In this document: positions 24,330 to 35,364 of the stretch, piece after piece | Layout of the letters: every line of letters starts with the position of its first letter | How positions within the stretch are numbered: the stretch's first letter is position 1 | Origin: Bacilli bacterium | GTDB lineage: Bacteria > Bacillota_I > Bacilli_A > RFN20 > CAG-826 | DNA: 64,000 nucleotides | Assembly: GCA_045114745.1 (NCBI GenBank) | Contig: JBGULD010000005.1 | Span: 1,467-65,466 of the forward strand | Direction: 5' to 3' | Made by a program: the position numbers and the translations under genes | The notes under the pieces: model-generated | The model's input: only the letters and a program-made list of their open reading frames with translations | The model's database searches: none | Told to the model about the DNA's origin: nothing

Positions 24330-24899
24330 TCAGTATTTATAGTTTTCGACATATTCAATAAATTCTTTAATGTTGGATTCTGATAGCGGTAAACATTTCA
24401 ACATTGTTATAACTTCATTGTATTTTAAAGCAAGCAGTTTCAGATATTGCGCTGGTTTATGATTTGAAACATCAATTTTAAAACCATGCTTTTTAAAAAC
24501 TTCATCCATATTTGGATAAAAATATATAGGAACAATATATCCACCCTTTCCCCACCAATAGGATGAGAAGATTTCTCCATTTTTATATTTTTCAAAAAGT
24601 TCGTCTGGAGTATCATCTTTATCCATGATAGAAAAGATTTTATGATCCAAAATTCCTTTTTTCTTATCAATCTTTAAGCAATCCTTAAATTTTGTTTTAT
24701 AATCCGCTATCGTGGGAAAATGCGCCGACAAATAATCGTTAATAGTATTAATAATAATCGAATTTCTTCCATTCTTTTCTGAAAGAGGATTCAACGACTT
24801 GTGAGTCTTTACTTGAATCTGTTTAACAAGTATTTGTTCGCATTCGCCGTGGCAAATGGTTGAACATGGATGATAATGTATCTTTCTATTTCTTTTCAT
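24330..24899 (-). CDS. TOPRIM/RloB-like small protein, partner of the upstream ATPase
   Basis: The 189-aa product is counted from the ATG at 24899; the tracked start at 24905 is TTG. STICHGECEQILV resembles the xCEGxxTE TOPRIM glutamate motif of RloB/DUF4435 proteins, and FSIMDKDDTPDE resembles their DxD motif. A Cys/His cluster HYHPCSTICHGEC is also present. The gene overlaps the 3' end of the ATPase gene. Confidence 0.45.
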   Translation of the reverse strand: MKRNRKIHYHPCSTICHGECEQILVKQIQVKTHKSLNPLSEKNGRNSIIINTINDYLSAHFPTIADYKTKFKDCLKIDKKKGILDHKIFSIMDKDDTPDELFEKYKNGEIFSSYWWGKGGYIVPIYFYPNMDEVFKKHGFKIDVSNHKPAQYLKLLALKYNEVITMLKCLPLSESNIKEFIEYVENYKY

Positions 24900-26214
24900 G
24901 TTCAATAATATCCACGATATATTTCATGGAGAAAAAACCTGTTTGAGGTACTCCTCCATATAGTCCCTTTAAATATTGACCAACCACATCGGTTCCACTT
25001 TGTATTTGTCTACCAAAAACATCCAAAGAATAAGAAACAACCTGATCATATTTTTCGTCTCTATCTAAAAGATAAATATATTTCTTATTAATATTTTTTA
25101 ATAATAAGGTATTGTGTGTAGTAACGATCAATTGTCCTTTAACATCGTTTCCTAAAGAATCAAAAATAGCCTTCAAGAGAATATCATTGATTCCGGAATC
25201 AATTTCATCAATCACAACAATGTTGTCGTTGGCAACGATTTCATAAAAAGTGGGGAACAATTCTAATAGTTTTTTTGTTCCGGTAGAAGCTAGACTATAA
25301 GGAACTCGAGATTCATTTTCACCACCGCCTTCCACGAAGACAAGATTATATGTTCTGCTATTATCGGAAGACACTTCAATATCATAATCCACCCTATTAA
25401 TGTTCGAATAAATAGAAGTAAAAAACATCGACAAGGCTGTCTTTGTATTTTCTAATTGTTGTTTCATAGAATCAAAATAATTACCGTATACCAAAATAGG
25501 TAACATATTTGAATCATATTTGAACATTACTGGGAAATTGGTTGTCTCTTTAAAAACATGCAACTTCTCTAACTCAAACATGAATGCTCTAATGGTTTTG
25601 GAAATATTTCTATTGCCATAAGTTCCATCAATTTCTCCATATACAGAATTGATGCACGCCAAAAGAGTGTGCTTGCCAGAATACATTTTGAATCTTTCAG
25701 AGATTAAACTCTTAAGTTCTTCAGAGAAGAAATGGGCATCACTCAAATCAGCATTTCCGTATCTATCCATGCCAAAACCTAAATCGCCATTAATAAATAA
25801 CTTTTCTTCCACAATAGAAGAACTATCAAAGGCAAGGCGATAATCAAATTTGTCATTGCCAACAAAGCATTCGTATTTGGCCCTCATATTATCTTTAGAA
25901 CCAATCTTTTTATAAATGCTTATATATTCAGGTGCACTATATAAAAAGTCATCGTTAACATAAAGTCTATTGATTTGATTTTGCAAATTAGATATTCCAT
26001 TTCCAAGAAACTGATTCGAGAATTTAGTACTAGCAATGGAGTTCTTTACTTTATTAAGTAATCTAAAAGCATCCACTACTGTTGATTTTCCAATAGCGTT
26101 TTCACCATAGATAACCGCAACATTCTTTGCACTTTTCTCGGCTTTGTTTTGATGCAAATCAAATTCAAAATGTTTGAAGGATTTAAAGTTGTCTAAAACA
26201 ATTTTACTAAACAT
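24886..26214 (-). CDS. ABC-type (AAA_21/AAA_15-like) ATPase of defence-island type
   Basis: Walker A is YGENAIGKST. ASTGTKKLLEL is signature-like, Walker B is VVIDEIDSGIND, and VTTHNTLLL is H-loop-like. There is no transmembrane or transport partner. An AAAGAGGA RBS is present. Confidence 0.75.
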   Translation of the reverse strand: MFSKIVLDNFKSFKHFEFDLHQNKAEKSAKNVAVIYGENAIGKSTVVDAFRLLNKVKNSIASTKFSNQFLGNGISNLQNQINRLYVNDDFLYSAPEYISIYKKIGSKDNMRAKYECFVGNDKFDYRLAFDSSSIVEEKLFINGDLGFGMDRYGNADLSDAHFFSEELKSLISERFKMYSGKHTLLACINSVYGEIDGTYGNRNISKTIRAFMFELEKLHVFKETTNFPVMFKYDSNMLPILVYGNYFDSMKQQLENTKTALSMFFTSIYSNINRVDYDIEVSSDNSRTYNLVFVEGGGENESRVPYSLASTGTKKLLELFPTFYEIVANDNIVVIDEIDSGINDILLKAIFDSLGNDVKGQLIVTTHNTLLLKNINKKYIYLLDRDEKYDQVVSYSLDVFGRQIQSGTDVVGQYLKGLYGGVPQTGFFSMKYIVDIIEHEKK

Positions 26215-26240
26215 GGCATGTTCCTCTTTTATGCATATTT

Positions 26241-26268
26241 AGTATATATTATTTCAGACAATTTACAA
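26241..26268 (-). promoter_or_regulatory. Candidate sigma-A promoter of the ATPase/TOPRIM-like pair
   Basis: The minus strand reads TTGTAA, a 16-nt spacer and TATACT, about 25 nt upstream of the ATG at 26214. Confidence 0.35.
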
Positions 26269-26551
26269 CAATATTTGCTGTTTTTTACTAAGTTTTTTAG
26301 CTTTTAATGTGTATATCGGTTAAACAAACAATATCATATTAAATGGCCGCATCATCAAAATTCTTGCAAAAGAAAGAAATAAAAAATGACTTTACATAAT
26401 TTATGTAAGTCACACATTATCTATTCTTGAACTTTGTTTTTTGATTATATTGATAAAATTGTTAACACTTTTTAGAATTAAAGTGTATCATAATAGTAGG
26501 CCCGAGGATATCTCGCGCGGTAAAAGAGGGAGCGTCTCCCCTTTTATTTTT

Positions 26552-27433
26552 TTATCTTTCCCATTTAGCAGGGAATTTGCGTAATCCCACCATCTTTCCG
26601 CTTCTATTACAAACAATCTTATTTTTGACTATTTCAAAATCTTTACCCTCTGTCCCAAATCGCATATAACGATAAATAGGATATGAACATAAATCAGCCA
26701 TTTCTATGCCAGGATATGCAAAAGCTCCGTCGTCAGATACTTTATGATTGAAAAACGCATCCACAAAATAGCGCTTTAGTACATTTTTCTTTGTGCTTTT
26801 ACAACCAGTTATATTTATTATCTTATAGATGTGTTTGTATAGTGATTTGTCTTCATTTTTGCCTCTAGATTCAAAAACAAGAGCTATTTTTTTATTTCGT
26901 TTAACATTCTTATATAAGCACTCAAGAATAATATCGAAAGCAACTTCGTAAGGATCGTATTTATAGTTTTGTTTGACATAAGAATACAAATCAAACGTCA
27001 CAGAAATAATTTTGCTTTTTATCATGCTTATAACGCTCGAAAGAGAATCTAAAAATTTATTGTATTTTTTCGCGGTTCCAAAATTAAATGGGCCCACTCT
27101 TTTGGCGATGTCTCTGTTGTGAAGAACAACTGGCGATTCCACCTTTTTAAAATACTGGTTTTTCAATTTTGCTATTAATTGCTTTGAAAATTCATACTCA
27201 CTCTTTGAAAATAAACAACAAGTTAAAGTGAAATATCTTCTGTTTTCATCTACTGGTTTGTTTGTAACAACGGATTTAAACATTTGTAAAATTGCGCTTG
27301 CGGAACCATTTTCATCAAAACAAGCAACATAGTCATATTTATTGTCAAAAGATGTAAATTCTTTTAGTGGTGTTTTGGATACAATTTCTTCCCAGTTTTT
27401 CATATCTAAAACTTTATCACAATAAAAGTACAC
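26552..27433 (-). CDS. DUF3800-like protein
   Basis: VACFDENGS resembles the N-terminal xxDESG motif. VVLHNRDI and GIEMADLCSYPIY resemble the central H..D and C-terminal ADL motifs of DUF3800. The start is uncertain: GTG at 27433 or ATG at 27403. The hairpin GGGAG-cgt-CTCCC at 26527-26541 lies just downstream. Confidence 0.55.
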   Translation of the reverse strand: MYFYCDKVLDMKNWEEIVSKTPLKEFTSFDNKYDYVACFDENGSASAILQMFKSVVTNKPVDENRRYFTLTCCLFSKSEYEFSKQLIAKLKNQYFKKVESPVVLHNRDIAKRVGPFNFGTAKKYNKFLDSLSSVISMIKSKIISVTFDLYSYVKQNYKYDPYEVAFDIILECLYKNVKRNKKIALVFESRGKNEDKSLYKHIYKIINITGCKSTKKNVLKRYFVDAFFNHKVSDDGAFAYPGIEMADLCSYPIYRYMRFGTEGKDFEIVKNKIVCNRSGKMVGLRKFPAKWER

Positions 27434-27472
27434 TATGACATAAAATAATAAAAATGCGTTGCAACAATCCTA

Positions 27473-27880
27473 CTAAGACAGCTTATTTGCAGCATCGAAA
27501 ATATCGTCAATAATACCATTTGGTAATTCGGTGAAGAAATAAAGCGTTCCTGCTTGGTTAGTAGGCATACTTCCGTTATGTGGATTTTTATCTAAAAAAC
27601 TTTTTTGTCTTTTATCATCATCTGATATTGAGTAATGTGAATAAAGTCTGATAGAACGCTTAAGTATATAAGGCTCAATTTTATAATTATCCAGATAGTT
27701 TCTTACTAAAAAGGCCGCTTTATCCATATCACATTGATAAAATCTACCAGCAACTTTCCCGTCTGGTGTTTTAAATTTATCAGCATTTAAGGCAACATCG
27801 ATAAAGGACTTACACAAAATATAAAACTCTTCATTTGAGAAATCCGATGGAACTTGTTTTAAAAAGTCTTCTTTTGTCAT
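27473..27880 (-). CDS. Hypothetical 135-aa protein (no recognisable family), upstream partner of the DUF3800-like gene
   Basis: The start is assigned to the ATG at 27880 (MTKEDFLKQV...), which has AAGGAG 7 nt upstream. The tracked start at 27931 is TTG and lies inside the repeat-module edge. A 39-nt gap separates it from the next gene. Confidence 0.55.
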   Translation of the reverse strand: MTKEDFLKQVPSDFSNEEFYILCKSFIDVALNADKFKTPDGKVAGRFYQCDMDKAAFLVRNYLDNYKIEPYILKRSIRLYSHYSISDDDKRQKSFLDKNPHNGSMPTNQAGTLYFFTELPNGIIDDIFDAANKLS

Positions 27881-27929
27881 GCACATTCTCCTTAAAAACA
27901 TTATACATTTTTGCTTTTGTCTTCTAAAC

Positions 27930-28120
27930 AACTTGCACTTCTTTCTTTTTTGATGGATTTATAGACACACAAGGAACAAGCACCACTATGAATAATAAAG
28001 ACAAGGTTATCTTTGATAAGAAACTCCCATACGAATATAACATCTGTCTTTATATCTTAGAAGAATTATGCGATAAGGGAATTATCAATGTTTTTGAGAT
28101 GACTGAAGCCATAATTCTTC
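27930..28120. repeat. Copy A of a roughly 190-bp duplicated divergent promoter/small-ORF module
   Basis: It aligns without indels to 31487..31677 and is roughly nine-tenths identical by eye. The alignment includes a perfect run TACGAATATAACATCTGTCTTTATATCTTAGAAGAATTATGCGATAAGGGAATTATC. Confidence 0.9.
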
Positions 28121-28152
28121 TAAGAAAGAAATACAAAAAATGCCTGTTATAA
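27988..28152 (+). CDS. Small conserved ORF (54 aa) inside repeat copy A
   Basis: Manual translation gives MNNKDKVIFDKKLPYEYNICLYILEELCDKGIINVFEMTEAIILLRKKYKKCLL. It is a paralogue of the N-terminal 42 aa of ORF 31545..31781. The nucleotide differences between copies keep the frame open. AAGGAA lies upstream. Confidence 0.4.
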   Translation: MNNKDKVIFDKKLPYEYNICLYILEELCDKGIINVFEMTEAIILLRKKYKKCLL

Positions 28153-28392
28153 GTATCTATGGTAAAAAAAGACAATAATTCCAGCGACTAAAAAGTAAGG
28201 AAAAGAACTAATAAAAGAAGCTGGTCCGAAACACAACCTAAAATCCACACTCACCTTTGGCGAGTGTTAGAACCTTCCATGTCTAATGCGAGCCATATGA
28301 TGTTTTTTGGTCTTACATATTATTTCATTTTTAACAAATATAATAATCAATTAAATGGATATTAGAGATCGTTTTTGTGGTACAAATAAAAA

Positions 28393-29511
28393 TTATTTGA
28401 TTTCAATAAATGAAATCTGCTTTTTTATTTTTAAGTTGGTGACAATTGTGTTTCTTTTTAGTTCAGGATATCTATATCTCTCATAAGCATTCAACAGTTT
28501 AGATACATTCATCTCAAGTTTTTGTAATTCTCTATTTTGTGTTTTTTTGTCGCCAAATCTTGAATAACAAATATATAAATTTATCTGCTTCGCCGTTTCT
28601 TTCCATTGGTGGCCATAGTTTTGCTTATAAAAGAAATCGCACATATCAAATAGTTCAAAGAAATATGGGTAATCTTGTTCCCCTAGTGAGTGCCCATAAA
28701 TAATTATTGCCTGAACGCCTTTCCTATCAAAATCATAACTGAAATCAACATCCAGTTTTCGCCATTCTTTGCTTAATTCAAAAATATCATTATCCTTTAT
28801 GCTTTGCCCTGTTGAATCATATCCTACGACAATTTTGGTATTGAGAGTTCCGTGAACATTCGCTTCACAACAGTATTTAGAAGAATCAATGGTGGTATAG
28901 TTAAAATCTATAATCTGTAATAAATAGTCTTTATTAACTGGACAGGCAGCGATAATTTTATCAACCATTTGTTCTTGAAGCTTTATATAATCGTTCTGCC
29001 TTCCAAGCCTTCTTTTAAGATATTTAATTAAGTCACTTTCAAGTTCATCCAAATCTTCAGATAAGATTTTCTTAATTGTTGAATAATCAAACTTTTGTCC
29101 GTCTTTTACCCTTCTATATAAAAGACCATCAATTCTTAATTGAATAGTATCTTTGATATTATAGTTGGAGCTTGGTAAATGGCTTTTATATATCTTTGAA
29201 ATCATTTCCTCTTCAGTTGCTATTTTCTTAACAAAACCTTCAACATCCATCCAGTTTGGATTTTTATAATCCACCGCTCTAAAAAATCCTGCATAATCGC
29301 GTTCTCTATAAAAACGCAATTTAAGTAATAAGTAAAGCAAATTATCACCATTGTATTGTTTTGACTTATCAAGCACACATTTTTCAAAGAAATTAGAAAA
29401 AGATGATTTTAACCCTAAGTGCATATCAAAACCATTCCCAAGCACTAAGACGTTGTGTGTTTTTGCAAACAAATCGATTACTTTATTTATTTTATTTTGA
29501 TCCATTTTCAT
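28393..29511 (-). CDS. AbiH-like abortive-infection family protein
   Basis: The N-terminus NVLVLGNGFDMHLGLKSSFSNFF matches the characteristic AbiH signature (GNGFD..hGl.tsY.dF). IIIYGHSLGEQDYPYF matches the C-terminal GHSL..D motif. Size is 372 aa. Confidence 0.7.
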   Translation of the reverse strand: MKMDQNKINKVIDLFAKTHNVLVLGNGFDMHLGLKSSFSNFFEKCVLDKSKQYNGDNLLYLLLKLRFYRERDYAGFFRAVDYKNPNWMDVEGFVKKIATEEEMISKIYKSHLPSSNYNIKDTIQLRIDGLLYRRVKDGQKFDYSTIKKILSEDLDELESDLIKYLKRRLGRQNDYIKLQEQMVDKIIAACPVNKDYLLQIIDFNYTTIDSSKYCCEANVHGTLNTKIVVGYDSTGQSIKDNDIFELSKEWRKLDVDFSYDFDRKGVQAIIIYGHSLGEQDYPYFFELFDMCDFFYKQNYGHQWKETAKQINLYICYSRFGDKKTQNRELQKLEMNVSKLLNAYERYRYPELKRNTIVTNLKIKKQISFIEIK

Positions 29512-29567
29512 GTTCTTTTGTTTTGTTTAAGTGATTGTGCTCCCAATAACAAAAAGCTTTGAATCAA

Positions 29568-29720
29568 TTATCTATCATCTTTTGGTTTTGGATTTGGGTT
29601 TGAGGGATATTTATCTGGATCGATGTTTTTGTGGCTATCGTGAATGGTAATGTTTTTATTATCAGAATTTGGGACACTATAGTTCTCTCTTATCGGTTTT
29701 TTTACTTTTGTATCAGGCAT
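29568..29720 (-). CDS. Possible 50-aa hydrophilic ORF translationally coupled to the upstream membrane-protein gene
   Basis: Manual translation gives MPDTKVKKPIRENYSVPNSDNKNITIHDSHKNIDPDKYPSNPNPKPKDDR. Its ATG at 29720 overlaps the upstream TGA (ATGCCTGA). The sequence is low complexity and has no homology support. Confidence 0.25.
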   Translation of the reverse strand: MPDTKVKKPIRENYSVPNSDNKNITIHDSHKNIDPDKYPSNPNPKPKDDR

Positions 29721-30309
29721 AATTAATTCCCTTCCTTTTCAAATAATATGCAGATTCTAAACTGCGATAATATTTTTGAACGACACTATTACGTGGATGC
29801 TTATTTAAAAACAATTTCATACAATATTTAGATGATAAATAAAACATATTCTTAAAAACTTTAATATAGTTATATAGTTTTTCTTTATCTTCTATTGTTA
29901 CCGAATCATTCAAATGTTTTTTTCTAAAATTCATATAATTGTTTTCTATTTTAAGAAATCTATATGCAAAACACTTTTTCTTTTCTTCTACATCATCACA
30001 CTTAATACAACCAAATTCTTCTAGATATTTATATCTATTGGCCACACCATAATAATATAGTCTATTAAAGCCAGTTAATAATTCTTCTTCAGTAGCAATT
30101 ATTCCTTTCATATCACGAAATGACCCACTATCAAGGATTTCATAGGCATCATTAATAAAAGACAATATCCCTTTTGTGTTATCAAAAAAGAAATCAATAT
30201 TGGCTTTATTATGTTGCCTAATTGCAAAATATAGCGAAATAAAAGCAATAACCATTGATATACAAGCAATAGATATTGAGATAATTGAAGTAACTACATC
30301 TGTTTGCAT
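29713..30309 (-). CDS. Hypothetical single-pass membrane protein (N-terminal TM helix + about 160-aa helical cytoplasmic domain)
   Basis: The TM helix is VVTSIISISIACISMVIAFISLYFAI, followed by a Lys/Tyr-rich soluble domain. I recognise no family. TATAAT lies 6 nt upstream of the ATG and there is no SD, so the transcript may be leaderless. Confidence 0.5.
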   Translation of the reverse strand: MQTDVVTSIISISIACISMVIAFISLYFAIRQHNKANIDFFFDNTKGILSFINDAYEILDSGSFRDMKGIIATEEELLTGFNRLYYYGVANRYKYLEEFGCIKCDDVEEKKKCFAYRFLKIENNYMNFRKKHLNDSVTIEDKEKLYNYIKVFKNMFYLSSKYCMKLFLNKHPRNSVVQKYYRSLESAYYLKRKGINYA

Positions 30310-30450
30310 ATAGTTATTATAAATCAGTAGAGCAAAGATGTCTTTAAAGTACTATTAAATCCATCATTAAATCATTTTAAAATTCATTGGTCCAAGCTAA
30401 TATCGCCGTCTTTTATCGACTATGCGATGTCAGAGCACCATTGTCGCTCT

Positions 30451-31458
30451 CTATTTTGATTCTTTCAATTCTTCTTTAAAATCTTTCACGGCTTTTTCTA
30501 GTTGCTTCGCATCACTTGAAAAAACATATTTATACGAGCAAGCCACACTATTTCTATTAGAAGCTTTTAATCCGGCATTAGAATAAACATTAAATTGTGT
30601 GCATTCACAATCTGTTCTTTCATAAAACTTTCTTTTGTCTGACATGATAAGCAAGAGTCTTTTAGATAGCGGAACCTCGACCACCATCCCGTATGTTGCA
30701 AGGGATGGAGGAAACATTGGCATTATTTCTTCTGTTGGACACAAGTTTAATAATTTATCAGTTAAGAACAGGGTTCCTCTATCAAAGAAAACAAATTGCC
30801 AAGTATAATTGAAGAAAATGTTCGTCATTTTATCAATAAGTTCTTTATTAATAATGGCGGAAATATGAAATAATCTTTTTTGTTCTTTTGTATAAGAGAT
30901 GGTTAAATTTTCCGGCTTAATATGGATGCCACCAAACTGTGCCATAATAGCCGTTGTTTGTTTAACCATTGAAACTCTCATTTCATCATAAAAATCTCTA
31001 ACATATTTTGTTTTGATGTGATGCAGTGCCAAAAGATGGGCAAACTTGGCCTTATTAACATCATCTAATAGAATTCTTTTTCCTTCTTTTGCATTTTTGA
31101 TTGTTTGTGATATTAATTCTCTGAATTCTGGTTCATATTGATTACTATACAAGTCATCAACAGCATATTCTAAATCTTCTTTTTCTTCCTTTGACATTTC
31201 AGATATCGGTTTAAATCCATCTTTTATAGAGGCTTCATCAATCTTTCTCTTTTCTTGATCATCTGAGCGATTATAAATATCTACTATTCCGAGATTGAAA
31301 AAATAGTTTTCTTCGCCAACATCTTGAATATCGCTCCAATAAAACTTATCAGTGTCTTTATTATAAACATACAATTTTTCATTCTTGGTGCAAAAATTCT
31401 TAAAATAGTGTTGAGATATATAGTGTTGCTTTTTGGCTCTGGTTTTTTTCCTTGACAT
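30451..31458 (-). CDS. DUF4238-like protein
   Basis: The N-terminus KKQHYISQHYFKNF matches the DUF4238 signature (HyvPqfyLrnF). Size is 335 aa. Confidence 0.6.
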   Translation of the reverse strand: MSRKKTRAKKQHYISQHYFKNFCTKNEKLYVYNKDTDKFYWSDIQDVGEENYFFNLGIVDIYNRSDDQEKRKIDEASIKDGFKPISEMSKEEKEDLEYAVDDLYSNQYEPEFRELISQTIKNAKEGKRILLDDVNKAKFAHLLALHHIKTKYVRDFYDEMRVSMVKQTTAIMAQFGGIHIKPENLTISYTKEQKRLFHISAIINKELIDKMTNIFFNYTWQFVFFDRGTLFLTDKLLNLCPTEEIMPMFPPSLATYGMVVEVPLSKRLLLIMSDKRKFYERTDCECTQFNVYSNAGLKASNRNSVACSYKYVFSSDAKQLEKAVKDFKEELKESK

Positions 31459-31677: not shown

Positions 31678-31781
31678 GGCGAGTGTTTACCAAACAAAAA
31701 GACTCACATTTCAACATAATTGAAACACGAGCCATGTATTGTTTTAAAAGAAAAGAAAAGCGGAATCCCGCTATTTCTTGA
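31545..31781 (+). CDS. Small ORF (78 aa) inside repeat copy B, paralogue of 27988..28152
   Basis: MHNKGKVIFDKKLLYEYNICLYILEELCDKGIIDAFEMTEAL is conserved with copy A, and the C-terminus then diverges. Its 3' end runs through the terminator and stop codon of the convergent epimerase gene, so the true length is doubtful. Confidence 0.35.
   Translation: MHNKGKVIFDKKLLYEYNICLYILEELCDKGIIDAFEMTEALIPRRVFTKQKDSHFNIIETRAMYCFKRKEKRNPAIS
31741..31772 (-). terminator. Rho-independent terminator of the ugd-HEPN-epimerase transcription unit
   Basis: The minus strand reads GCGGGATTCCGC followed by TTTTCTTTTCTTTT, overlapping the TAG stop at 31771-31773. Confidence 0.7.
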
Positions 31782-32797
31782 TATAGAAACTATAATACCA
31801 TTCCGCAAAACGTCTTAATCCATCTCTAAGACTTGTGGATGGTTTATAACCAAAATCTCTTTCTAAATCACTTGTATCTGCATATGTAACAGGAACATCG
31901 CCTTTTTGCATTGGCGCCAATTTCTTGTGAGATTCGAAATCATAATCTTTAGGAAGTACATCCGCTTTAACGAGTTCTTCAGATAATATCTGTACGAAAT
32001 CTAATAGGTTTTCTGGATTATTATTACCAATGTTATAAATCTTATACGGAGGAATTGGTAAACCATCTTCTCCATCATGTTTCACTGGAGGTTTATCCAT
32101 CACTCTTATAACGCCTTCAACAATATCATCTACATAAGTGAAATCTCTTTTACAATTACCATAATTAAAGATTTCAATAGTTTCACCTTTAATTAACTTA
32201 TTAGTAAAACTAAAGTACGCCATATCTGGTCTTCCCATAGGACCATATACAGTAAAGAATCTTAATCCAGTTGTTGGGATGTTATATAACTTAGAATAAG
32301 CATGCGCTAGTAATTCATTAGACTTTTTGGTCGCAGCATATAAACTAACTGGATTATCTACTTTATCGTCTGTAGAAAATGGAACTTTAACATTGCCACC
32401 ATAAACGGATGATGAAGATGCATACACTAAGTGTTTAACTGGATGATATCTACATGCTTCTAATATGTTATAGAATCCAATAATATTTGATTGAATATAA
32501 ACATCAGGATGATCAATTGAATATCTAACACCCGCTTGAGCCGCTAAGTTGACAACAATATCAAAATAATATTCATTAAATAACTTATCTAAAAATGCTT
32601 TATCGGATATATCACCTTTAACAAATGTAAAGTTCTTAAAAGAAGATAACATTTTGAGTCTTTCATTTTTTTAAAGACACATCATAATAATCATTAAGGT
32701 TATCTAAACCAATAATGTCATAATCTGTGATTTCTAATAATTTTTTACATAGAAACGCACCTATAAATCCTGCAGCGCCTGTAATGAATATTTTCAT
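31771..32797 (-). pseudogene. UDP-glucuronate 4-epimerase-like NAD-dependent epimerase, interrupted by a frameshift in an A7 tract
   Basis: The ATG at 32797 gives [44 protein letters not shown] and then TGA. Removing one A from the A7 run (T7 on the plus strand, 32666-32672) restores ...[26 protein letters not shown]..., continuous with tracked ORF 31771..32652. That ORF carries YASSSSVYG and YAATK, the SDR catalytic motifs. Confidence 0.8.
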
Positions 32798-34149
32798 AAC
32801 GTATTCGAGGTTTGGTTTTTATCGTCTCCAGACAACTCTTCTGTTTTGAAATCACCAATGTGATTATTGACTATTTCATTGTAATAAATTGTATCTCGAA
32901 ATTGCAAAAATAATGGCCAGTTAATCAATTCGTTTGGTGTTTTGTCGGAGGAATATGATTGTTCAATTAATATGGCCGCATCTTTATAATTATCTAATAA
33001 AATTAGTTTAGCAATCTTGAACTGTATTTCAGCTGCACTAACATCAAATGTCGCAATTTCTTTATCAAAAGAATCATTTTGGCTTGAATATTTTAAAGAC
33101 AACAACAGATTAACCTTGGCAATCATTTTTGTAGCAAAATCAAGCTTTTTAGATGAAGAAAGAACCTTATAAACAAATGAAGTCAAAATATATTCTTTGT
33201 TGGCCAACTTTTCAAAATAATAATCCAGCAATTCATCAACATTGTTTTCAGAGGGTTTTTCTTTTTCCAACAGTTTAAAAACAATAAAAAACATTATTTT
33301 TTGAATATTAATAATATTTTCCGCAAAATACTCTTTGTCACACTTTAATGAAGTACCAATTTTGCACAATGATGATGGAATCGACTTCAAATACATTTGA
33401 TTCACAATTCCTTCGTTGTGAACAAATATGTTTCTTCTGTAGTATAATTCACAAAAGCGATCGAATAAATCTTTAATCTCTCCAAGGCATATTTTTTCTT
33501 TTTCGAAAATCTTTTTCGTGGTCTCAATCGAATCAAACATATCTGCTTCAACAATCTCATCAATTTGTTCATTTATAATTTCATCAACGTCCTTTCTAAT
33601 CAAGGATTGTAATGTTATTGTTTTTGAGCAGAAATATATGGATGGGTTATTGTGTATTAAAGCTGTATAGACGCACGAAAGAAATGACTCGTATGTGGAT
33701 ATCAAACTAGACAATATTGATTTTTGTAAACAAGAATACATATATCCATATTTTTTCATTATTCTTCTAGCAGTGGATGGCGAATATAGTTTTCGATCTT
33801 TAATTTCTTGATTAAAAACAAATTCAAATCCCATCTCTTTTTCGCTAAATGATAATTCTGAAAACAAATCAAAAAGCTTGTATTTTGAAGAAACGGGAGC
33901 ATTTTTAATCTCTTCCGCCCTTTCTTTTCTTTCTTTTTCGGTTTTGCATTTGTAAACAGAATTAAATAATGAAAGAATTTTGAAGGACGTTTCGTTGTTT
34001 TGTTTTTCTTTCGCAAAATTCTCTTTAATTGCTGCCAAATTAATTAAAAAATAGTCAAAGAGTTGTCCAATGTGCTCGGAAAAAGAAATGCAACAACTAA
34101 CTATTGCGTTTTTGAATTGTTCTTTGAAATCTTTATTGTCGTCTTTCAT
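32794..34149 (-). CDS. HEPN-motif protein (predicted RNase-type defence/toxin domain) with a large uncharacterised N-terminal region
   Basis: [14 protein letters not shown] contains the Rx4H HEPN catalytic motif (RNIFVH) in a helical context. The product is 451 aa from the ATG at 34149; the tracked start at 34155 is TTG. Its stop TGA overlaps the epimerase ATG (ATGA), and its start lies 7 nt after the ugd stop. Confidence 0.55.
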
Positions 34150-34155
34150 AAACAA

Positions 34156-35364
34156 TTAATCTCTCTTAAATAAATCCCTTGTATAGATTTTATCTTTAAC
34201 ATCATCTAAAGATGAATCATATCTATTAGCGATAATAACTTTGGATAATTTCTTAAATTCATCAAAGTCTTTAATAACTCTACATTTAAAGAATTCCTCT
34301 TCTTTTAATGTTGGTTCATAAATAACTATATCAACGCCTTTAGCTTGTAATCTCTTCATGACACCTTGAATAGAAGATGCTCTAAAGTTATCGGAACCAG
34401 ATTTCATAGTTAATCTATATATGCCAACGGTCACATCATCATGACCATCATTCTTATATCCCGCTTTTCTTAATACTTCATCACAAATGAATTGTTTTCT
34501 AGTTCTATTAGATTCCACTATCGCGGATATAAGATTCTCTGGTACATCTTCAAAGTTAGCTTTCAATTCTTTAGTATCTTTAGGCAAACAATATCCACCA
34601 TAACCAAAGGATGGATTATTATAGAAGTCTCCTATTCTAGGATCACCACATACACCTTTAATAATATCTAATGTATCTAGACCTTTGGTTTGGGCGAACG
34701 TATCTAATTCATTAAAATACGCTACTCTAAGCGCTAAATATGTATTAGCAAATAACTTAACGGCTTCCGCTTCAGTACATCCAAGAATATGTGTTTCTAT
34801 ATTCTCTTTAATGGCGCCTTCTTGAAGAAGCTTTGCAAATTCTTTCGCTTTAGATAAATAAGGTTCTTTTTTCTCAGGAACACCCACGACTATTCTTGAC
34901 GGATAAAGATTATCATATAGTGCTTTTCCCTCTCTTAAGAATTCAGGAGAAAAAAGAATCTTATCATATTGATATTTTTCTCTTACATATTTAGTAAATC
35001 CGACACCTACAGTGGATTTAACAATAATCCAAGCATTAGGATTAACTTTCTTAACTTGTTTAATAACTGATTCTACAGATGATGTATCAAACTTGTTGGT
35101 CACACTATCATAGTTTGTAGGGGTAGCAATGATAACTAATTCAGATTGCTTATAAGCACCATCACCATCTAATGTTGCTATTAAATCTAATTGTTTGTTT
35201 GCTAAATATTCTTCAATCTCTTTATCAATGATTGGAGATTTTTTGTTGTTAATTAAATTAACCTTAGATGTAACTACATCTACGGCATAAACTTTATTAT
35301 TTTGGGCTAAGATAATTGCATTACTTAGTCCAACATATCCGAGTCCAACAACAGAAATGAACAT
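34156..35364 (-). CDS. ugd: UDP-glucose 6-dehydrogenase
   Basis: [16 protein letters not shown] provides the Rossmann motif and [10 protein letters not shown] contains the catalytic Cys. Size is 402 aa. Confidence 0.9.

Follow-up and report, generated by a model that had tools for sequence, protein, structure and literature searches.

A candidate solo HEPN-like defence ribonuclease in a variable junction between ugd and an epimerase gene of a capsule operon

We analysed a stretch of 64,000 nucleotides (nt) from a Bacilli bacterium (contig JBGULD010000005.1 of assembly GCA_045114745.1), hereafter called the window, and focused on a gene for a protein of 451 amino acids (aa) that is located on the minus strand between ugd and a sugar-nucleotide epimerase gene. 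This position lies near the 3' end of a capsule operon of ~20 kb, and in related loci the same junction is either empty or occupied by other genes. We will refer to the junction as the slot and to whatever gene it holds as the cargo. Overall, we consider it fairly probable that the 451-aa cargo is a solo HEPN-like defence ribonuclease (RNase) that is horizontally exchanged through this variable slot. An earlier interpretation based on the letters of the window (the sequence-only reading) had likewise described a predicted RNase toxin or defence gene spliced into the operon. Its foreign insertion, RNxxxH centre, missing antitoxin and defence link stood up to our analysis. Structure searches could not confirm the HEPN fold, and the size of the N-terminal region, the notion of a single insertion and the decay of the epimerase gene did not hold. 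The features of the locus are:

34156..35364, minus strand: ugd (UDP-glucose 6-dehydrogenase family), upstream flank of the slot (Pfam UDPG_MGDP_dh_N, central and C-terminal domains)
32794..34149, minus strand: cargo gene, 451 aa, member of an unnamed ~450-aa family with a central HEPN-like domain (open reading frame [ORF], homologues, AlphaFold [AF2] model)
33799..34149, minus strand: N-terminal region, aa 1-117, a long helical hairpin and a beta-hairpin (secondary structure of the AF2 model)
33250..33798, minus strand: HEPN-like helical domain, aa 118-300, with the conserved upstream acidic residue E154 (collinear sub-threshold PF18735 matches; domain model)
33400..33450, minus strand: predicted catalytic motif E234-x3-R238-R239-N240-x3-H244-x2-G247-x2-N250 (conservation; C-terminal end of helix 222-245)
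32839..33249, minus strand: C-terminal alpha-helical repeat domain, aa 301-437, with conserved N347, D369, W411-P412 and R418 (conservation, AF2 model)
32794..32797, minus strand: ATGA stop/start overlap of cargo and epimerase gene (sequence; L154 has the same overlap)
31771..32797, minus strand: NAD-dependent sugar-nucleotide epimerase, downstream flank, with a +1 frameshift (Pfam Epimerase, 1.1e-46)
32666..32672, minus strand: A7 homopolymer behind the epimerase frameshift (reading-frame analysis; orthologues are in frame here)
31701..31772, minus strand: two terminator-like hairpins directly 3' of the epimerase stop, end of the capsule transcription unit (hairpin scan)

The cargo ORF in the ORF list of the window (minus strand 32794..34149) begins with ATG, and an alternative in-frame TTG at 34155, six bases upstream of this ATG, would extend the protein to 453 aa. 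The TAA stop codon of ugd (34158-34156) is followed by six bases and then by the cargo ATG (34149-34147), while at the other end the cargo TGA (32796-32794) overlaps the epimerase ATG (32797-32795) to give ATGA at 32797-32794. Accordingly, every statement of the sequence-only reading on the gene and its coupled junctions could be confirmed, both the ATG just behind the ugd stop and the TGA/ATG overlap. The dehydrogenase carries three UDP-glucose/GDP-mannose dehydrogenase Pfam domains (E 3e-32 to 3e-10), and its last codons, AAG AGA GAT TAA, form a purine-rich stretch just 5' of the cargo start codon. This purine-rich end of ugd, AAGAGAGA, is kept in all related loci compared. The three genes follow a long co-oriented run of capsule genes and represent its 3' end, because no terminator-like hairpin was found within the ugd-cargo-epimerase stretch and two are located behind the epimerase gene. 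A search for an internal promoter gave promoter-like sites no commoner than in shuffled sequence, and the composition of the insert is not diagnostic (G+C content of the cargo 28.5-29%, compared to ~30-32% around it). The absence of an MNT-type or other antitoxin-like neighbour, claimed earlier, was also borne out: the flanks are ugd and the epimerase gene, with neither an ORF nor room for an antitoxin on either side of the cargo.

We then compared the junction in related loci, which are numbered here with the prefix L. A metagenome scan with ugd recovered 80 loci at 64-89% identity, and the cargo family was absent from all of these. The empty junction, with 0-4 nt from the ugd stop to the epimerase start, was found in L076, L085, L090, L091, L092, L100, L103, L112 and L126, and the two genes are adjacent in the reverse order, epimerase before ugd, in more than 12 more distant loci. 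The expectation of the sequence-only reading that both genes normally adjoin is thereby supported, for either order. At the same junction, loci with 87-89% identical ugd genes (84-89% across empty and filled loci) hold unrelated cargo in the same orientation:

L077: Abi_alpha (Pfam 4e-48; PADLOC PDC-S47 2.5e-79)
L084: 257-aa ORF, Abi_alpha-like as judged by eye
L082: 565-aa reverse transcriptase (RVT_1; PADLOC DRT RT_UG31 7.6e-72)
L079: DUF6864 and a membrane ORF
L074 (L074:7215-8042; remnant in L104): 275-aa ORF, no Pfam or PADLOC match
L088 (L088:2418-3230): 269-aa membrane protein, no Pfam or PADLOC match
L087 (L087:7265-7992) and L123: pair of a 55-aa and a 180-aa ORF; no Pfam or PADLOC match for the L087 pair
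L113 (L113:1296-1661): 110-aa ORF, no Pfam or PADLOC match
L086: TupA-like ATP-grasp, probably sugar-related, not defence
L083: 5.5 kb of glycosyltransferase genes

Most of these inserts start 2-25 nt after the ugd stop and end at the epimerase ATG or no more than ~25 nt from it. The same flanks enclose differing cargo that includes recognised defence genes, as in a hotspot flanked by core genes, and the insertion of a foreign gene between a normally contiguous pair was confirmed by both the empty and the otherwise filled junctions. Because the junction is empty or holds unrelated cargo in related loci, the 451-aa gene is not a sugar-pathway gene; a conserved sugar-pathway component, which the sequence-only reading had named as the finding that would speak against it, was not encountered. 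In L081, a single ORF follows ugd (L081:1478-2347). By their position, this ORF and the unmatched slot ORFs of L074, L088, L087 and L113 are candidate new defence genes. A search of the literature on capsule-embedded defence slots retrieved nothing specific.

The slot of the window is not the only one that is occupied by this family. The two closest relatives of the cargo (56% and 54% identical) are also arranged as ugd-X-epimerase, in four independent contigs, with gaps of 1-2 nt after ugd and, in one case (L154), the ATGA overlap. Altogether, three alleles of the family were found in the slot, with 54-66% identity between the cargo proteins and 88-92% between the flanks; the ugd of the window, for instance, is 88% identical to that of L067. 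Comparing the window with L067/L068, we obtained a nonsynonymous divergence (dN) of 0.093 and a synonymous difference (pS) of 0.61 for ugd, and 0.094 and 0.58 for the epimerase gene. For the cargo, both values were higher (dN 0.35; pS 0.79, which is saturated), and the cargo alleles are therefore older than their flanks. This divergence points to recombinational exchange and not to simple fast evolution in place. A one-time insertion can no longer be maintained, since three diverged alleles share the slot and other genes of the abortive infection (Abi) type use it elsewhere.

Some further observations were made at this boundary. In two more distant ugd loci (L106:4891-8510 and L107:4887-5732), ugd is followed by an opposite-strand gene that resembles a large serine recombinase by eye, in L106 together with a 556-aa protein that is DUF262/GmrSD-like by eye. 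Genes of this kind would speak for a mobile element at this boundary. An integron cassette was considered and rejected: the ends of the cargo abut or overlap start and stop codons and leave no room for an attC site, and no integrase is located beside the slot in the window. We also rejected 43-aa "members" of cluster P0002 as scars of former slot occupation, as they turned out to be unrelated HisA-like fragments.

The cargo belongs to a large family. A word-indexed search retrieved 17 full-length homologues of 360-458 aa, none of them with a Pfam domain or a name, and an exhaustive profile search gave 5332 cluster representatives at E<=1e-3, 2997 at E<=1e-10 and 859 at E<=1e-30. Of the best 150 profile matches, nearly all aligned end to end and have lengths of 430-470 aa. 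Genome loci were located by a degenerate DNA pattern for the motif in a collection of species-representative genomes, of which the genome of the window is not part. This pattern hit 56 places, and all 56 encode true members at E<=1e-48. Their hosts are Clostridia, Lachnospiraceae, Oscillospiraceae, Lysinibacillus, many Bacteroidota and one cyanobacterium. Tblastn searches gave four distant matches on plasmids, all annotated as "hypothetical protein", and no family member in phage records. The cargo ORF is more than a chance reading frame, because full-length homologues exist in which the motif residues are invariant or nearly so. Three loci (L046, L049 and L051) have pseudogenised copies, in which the gene is broken up into two or three ORFs, so the gene is also lost by decay. 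Literature on this protein family was searched for and nothing specific was found.

We next addressed the domain architecture. The AF2 model of the full protein (predicted local distance difference test [pLDDT] 90.3, predicted template-modelling score [pTM] 0.85) is helical except for one beta-hairpin, and a model of the central domain only (aa 118-300) reached a pLDDT of 90.7. The N-terminal region is the most variable part of the family, with a mean top-residue frequency of 0.22 versus 0.39-0.40 elsewhere. It comprises ~117 aa and not the ~230 aa that had been proposed as a region without known resemblance, since the HEPN-like domain begins near residue 120. The motif from E234 to N250 is invariant in 18 sequences, and in 148 diverse representatives the residues E154, E234, R238, R239, N240, H244, N250, Y253, Y274, N347, D369, W411, P412 and R418 are conserved to at least 90%. 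The core of the family reads E-x3-R-R-N-x3-H-x2-G-x2-N. In both AF2 models the motif closes helix 222-245 and is followed by a loop and then by a long helix (272-297), as judged at the level of secondary structure.

HEPN active sites consist of an Rx4-6H motif with a polar residue (N, D or H) after the arginine and a second acidic residue upstream (PMC3710099). In the family, R239-N240-x3-H244 provides the Rx4-6H motif with its polar residue, the position at a helix end agrees as far as AF2 secondary structure is concerned, and both E154 and E234 (E-x3-R), each at least 90% conserved, can serve as upstream acidic residue. The stretch noticed in the sequence-only reading corresponds to residues 234-247 and indeed contains a conserved RNxxxH centre of the HEPN kind. 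When 97 members were scanned one by one against Pfam, HEPN_RiboL-PSP (PF18735) appeared in nine of them (best E 6.3e-5) and was the only recurrent family; Csm6-HEPN was matched by two members and HepT-like by one, and the remaining families were mostly single and never exceeded two. Domain-only sequences from a Bacteroidota-rich branch matched PF18735 collinearly in five of ten cases (positions ~18-177 of 191, E 2e-5 to 3e-3, 18-25 bits), and one of the ten matched HEPN_Cthe2314. Taken together, the central domain is probably a divergent HEPN domain, and it is not a member of PF18735.

For the HEPN-like domain, the sole confident fold neighbour is an unannotated 311-aa protein of Siphoviridae sp. 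ctiPM17 in BFVD (A0A8S5NVI2; TM score 0.68, 21% identity, E 6e-4). Judging from this fold match, phages appear to have the domain in a shorter form. For the C-terminal domain, in which W411-P412 and R418 are invariant, fold matches were weak and TPR-like only, and its family consensus showed a weak sub-threshold match to Pfam Death_3 (bacterial Death-like; E 0.003-0.013).

The genomic company of the family was analysed with 203 neighbours from 60 loci, compared all against all, and with a Pfam census of 147 flanking proteins. No conserved partner gene emerged across the 60 loci, only small neighbour clusters. The largest were those of HsdS (5 loci), HsdR (6-7 loci) and HsdM, with HsdR usually encoded immediately downstream of the family gene and on the same strand. 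The Pfam census is headed by ResIII/SWI2_SNF2/HSDR_N, Methylase_S, N6_Mtase, phage integrase, EcoEI_R_C and Fic, followed by YhcG nuclease, AAA_21/AAA_15, patatin, DUF4145 and protein kinase, and recombinases recur as well. Some members sit between hsdS and hsdR and adjoin a shufflon-type recombinase gene. In other settings, the gene comes after hsdM-hsdS together with Fic and AbiTii, or beside an AAA_13 ATPase. One relative is found in a defence island (kinase, DUF3800, AAA_21, methylase and DndB) that is nested in an rml/Wzy polysaccharide locus. The defence link suggested earlier is thus supported: the family is mostly found among defence genes, in type I restriction-modification (R-M) operons and defence islands. 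HEPN genes occur in R-M operons more often than in most other contexts, and a PrrC-like back-up role has been proposed for them (PMC3710099). Neither L-PSP nor ParB was present among the top 25 neighbour families.

Two small neighbours were noted in addition. A 190-aa ORF with a HEMRH (HExxH-like) sequence lies directly upstream of a P0005 member in four contigs (L001:7503-8075); it is unrelated to a 198-aa membrane protein encoded in the window at 29713-30309. The latter has a homologue (E 4e-17) at L070:874-1494, and also in L071-L073, immediately upstream of a P0004 member that is followed by an AAA_13 ATPase. The 198-aa protein is probably not a general partner of the family, since only this one other member has a homologue beside it (L070-L073) and none was seen in the other ~60 family loci.

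A number of results weigh against a HEPN RNase that acts in defence. With 24.8 bits, the best PF18735 match stays below the gathering threshold of 28.4 bits, and the protein of the window and the family consensus sequences match nothing in Pfam significantly (consensus with PF18735, E 0.44). Foldseek searches of the Protein Data Bank (PDB) with the full-length and domain-only models retrieved no HEPN structure; at E ~0.5-1 they returned noise, namely TPR-like folds for the full protein and phycobiliprotein or globin for the domain. Sequence searches of the PDB with four profiles likewise gave noise and no relative. For the window protein, Pfam, NCBIfam and PHROGs hold no matching model, and PADLOC-DB v2 gave 0 families at E<=1, including ApeA, AbiD/F, AbiJ, AbiU, AbiV and the PDC singles. 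In addition, no published experiment on any family member was found in the literature, and co-transcription and expression of the cargo would follow from the layout of the locus only. Finally, neither R-M genes nor a second family copy are present in the window, so that a PrrC-like guard role cannot apply here. Of the HEPN fold that the sequence-only reading had assumed, the motif, its position on the helix and the consistent profile matches speak for it, whereas the fold search found no HEPN protein and the profiles remain sub-threshold.

These results could also be explained by a protein that acts in defence or conflict, with family and context as described, but is not a HEPN RNase, with the R/N/H centre serving DNA or nucleotide cleavage or ligand binding in another helical fold. 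The missing structural match to any HEPN protein, the sub-threshold level of all profile matches and the fact that the sole confident fold neighbour is an unannotated 311-aa phage protein are all in line with this explanation. We nevertheless regard it as unlikely, since the type of the motif, its helix-end position, the polar residue after the arginine and the upstream acidic residue fit the HEPN definition, and since it is only families of the HEPN clan on which the weak profile matches recur. Another possibility is a selfish gene (addiction or toxin) or a passenger in decay, which would give its host no protection and be linked to the capsule genes by hitch-hiking on a recombining locus. 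This would agree with the far stronger divergence of the cargo than of its flanks, which extends to synonymous sites and suggests recombinational exchange. It would also agree with the split pseudogenes in some genomes (L046, L049 and L051) and with a record that holds no defence phenotype for the family. But no antitoxin partner was found in ~60 contexts, three slot alleles have an intact ORF that retains every conserved residue, the neighbours are mostly bona fide defence systems, and recognised defence genes use the same slot. We therefore think this explanation quite improbable.

If the cargo were instead part of capsule synthesis, as a component or a regulator with its proper place between ugd and the epimerase gene, it could be expected to be tightly coupled in translation on both sides and to recur as ugd-X-epimerase in several lineages, as is the case in three. 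This possibility is nonetheless largely refuted, and we give it hardly any credence: 0/80 related ugd loci carry the cargo family, many of them having 0-4 nt junctions and others unrelated cargo; all 56 genome copies found with the pattern are located elsewhere, with neighbours headed by R-M and not by sugar genes; and the cargo diverges about four times faster than its flanks. We prefer the solo HEPN-like defence RNase exchanged through the slot. A more far-reaching version of this proposal is conceivable, but we consider it doubtful. It would see the junction as a dedicated operon-internal immunity slot of a low-GC uncultured Bacillota lineage, in which ORF-only cassettes are recombined via their flanks and expressed from the capsule promoter, so that an Abi protein is made together with the capsule as phage receptor. 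Its present occupant would then represent a new widespread class of solo HEPN anticodon or RNA nucleases that back up type I R-M systems.

How such a solo HEPN-like RNase might work can be outlined as follows. The cargo would be transcribed by read-through from the capsule promoter and hence be expressed constitutively. Its translation would start from the purine-rich end of ugd, a stretch that may serve the epimerase gene in empty loci, and ribosomes would be passed on from the cargo to the epimerase gene via ATGA. The protein could be kept inactive as an auto-inhibited oligomer until a phage component is sensed by its non-catalytic domains; by analogy to HepS (see below), sensing would fall to the variable N-terminal region or to the C-terminal repeat domain. 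On sensing, two Rx4H motifs would meet and cut tRNA or other RNA, thereby halting translation in the infected cell. Relatives in type I R-M operons may have a PrrC-like back-up role, becoming active once restriction is blocked.

The epimerase gene downstream of the cargo had been described as decayed, which was overstated. A single +1 frameshift in the A7 run puts a TGA at codon 45, just behind DVSLKK; with one A fewer the frame is restored and lines up with the SLKEERLKML or SLKEARLKML of orthologues. The 293 codons that remain are undamaged and share 90% identity with a complete orthologue of 341 aa. A Logan assembly contig (L010) that encodes the identical protein has this A7 too; its assembly may share the reads of the window. 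The lesion, one homopolymer indel, may have made a pseudogene very recently, or it may reflect phase variation of the tract or an error of the assembly. A connection between the lesion and the insertion was not borne out either: in two other occupied contigs the epimerase gene is whole and intact (341 and 340 aa), and in the other two it is cut by the contig end.

Beyond the operon terminator, the window contains a defence island, which is followed by housekeeping aminotransferase genes:

24330..31458, minus strand: defence island downstream of the operon terminator (Pfam, PADLOC)
30451-31458, minus strand: DUF4238 (Pfam)
29713-30309, minus strand: 198-aa membrane protein
28393-29511, minus strand: AbiH (PADLOC 5.6e-7)
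between AbiH and DUF3800, minus strand: 152-aa ORF
26552-27433, minus strand: DUF3800 (Pfam)
24886-26214, minus strand: AbiLi-like ATPase (PADLOC AbiLi 1.7e-41)

A 191-aa partner ORF of the AbiLi-like ATPase may be AbiLii. In L067, a four-gene operon of a cyclic-oligonucleotide-based antiphage signalling system (CBASS; SMODS cyclase, E1/E2-like, JAB and a Cap15-type effector) lies directly upstream of ugd (L067:4360-8148) and adjoins fragments of Bac_transf and Polysacc_synt genes, and in L068 an AAA_21 pair comes after the epimerase gene. The 3' end of the capsule locus in this lineage is a defence-rich zone.

Pfam, NCBIfam, PADLOC and PHROGs have all missed this candidate defence family, even though it is large, spans Bacillota, Bacteroidota and cyanobacteria, and is often encoded in type I R-M operons. 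As a single gene of ~1.35 kb, it is easy to test. Furthermore, a defence hotspot can be as small as a stop/start junction in a biosynthetic operon, a type of site that island-based discovery and operon annotation would overlook. If expression of the cargo indeed follows the capsule promoter, a surface receptor and an intracellular immunity would be co-regulated, which bears on phage-host dynamics in gut and rumen. The ugd/epimerase slot, for its part, offers a clean natural experiment.

Several known systems can be compared with the cargo and its slot. PrrC and RloC consist of an N-terminal ABC-ATPase fused to a HEPN domain and are encoded in an R-M locus. Many family members are located between hsdS and hsdR in the same way as prrC, and the predicted HEPN chemistry is shared, but the cargo family lacks an ABC-ATPase domain, and none of the 64 kb of the window encodes an R-M system. 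HEPN-MNT and other type II toxin-antitoxin pairs differ in that no adjacent cognate antitoxin is conserved across the ~60 loci of the family. The family resembles the HEPN Abi-type RNases of R-M systems (Anantharaman et al. 2013, PMC3710099) in having an RNxxxH centre at a helix end, an upstream acidic residue and an all-helical domain; it is also often found inside R-M operons with Fic/Doc-type genes and shows weak collinear similarity to PF18735, the nearest Pfam model. In contrast to HEPN_RiboL-PSP proteins proper, family scores are sub-threshold and there is neither an L-PSP fusion nor a ParB operon. Instead, the protein has a three-part architecture of ~450 aa with its own N- and C-terminal domains, outside the models of Pfam, NCBIfam and PADLOC.

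The working model for the proposed mechanism is HepS, a solo HEPN anticodon nuclease of the Gifsy-1 prophage that is constitutively expressed and has no partner gene (PMC13043305). HepS is held in an inactive oligomer, is activated by direct binding of a phage structural protein, and cuts the anticodon loops of tRNAs (PMC13043305). Like HepS (PMC13043305), the cargo is a single gene without a partner. The two differ in size and domain set and have no detectable similarity in sequence or fold (PDB searches), and HepS is carried by a prophage whereas the cargo resides in a chromosomal biosynthetic operon.

The slot itself resembles the core-genome hotspots described for Pseudomonas aeruginosa (PMC10250203) and E. 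coli, where conserved flanks enclose cargo that varies between close relatives and includes recognised defence genes. Unlike these hotspots, it is a stop/start junction of 0-4 nt inside an operon, which mostly takes up a single co-oriented ORF with little non-coding flank and keeps the coupling, and no integrase, attC site or repeat is tied to it. Nothing in our proposal is mechanistically unprecedented. Taken together, the protein represents a new, unnamed family that probably belongs to the HEPN superfamily of Abi-type effectors, and the arrangement is a variant of the known core-gene-flanked hotspot that has shrunk to a stop/start junction in a biosynthetic operon and takes ORF-only cargo.

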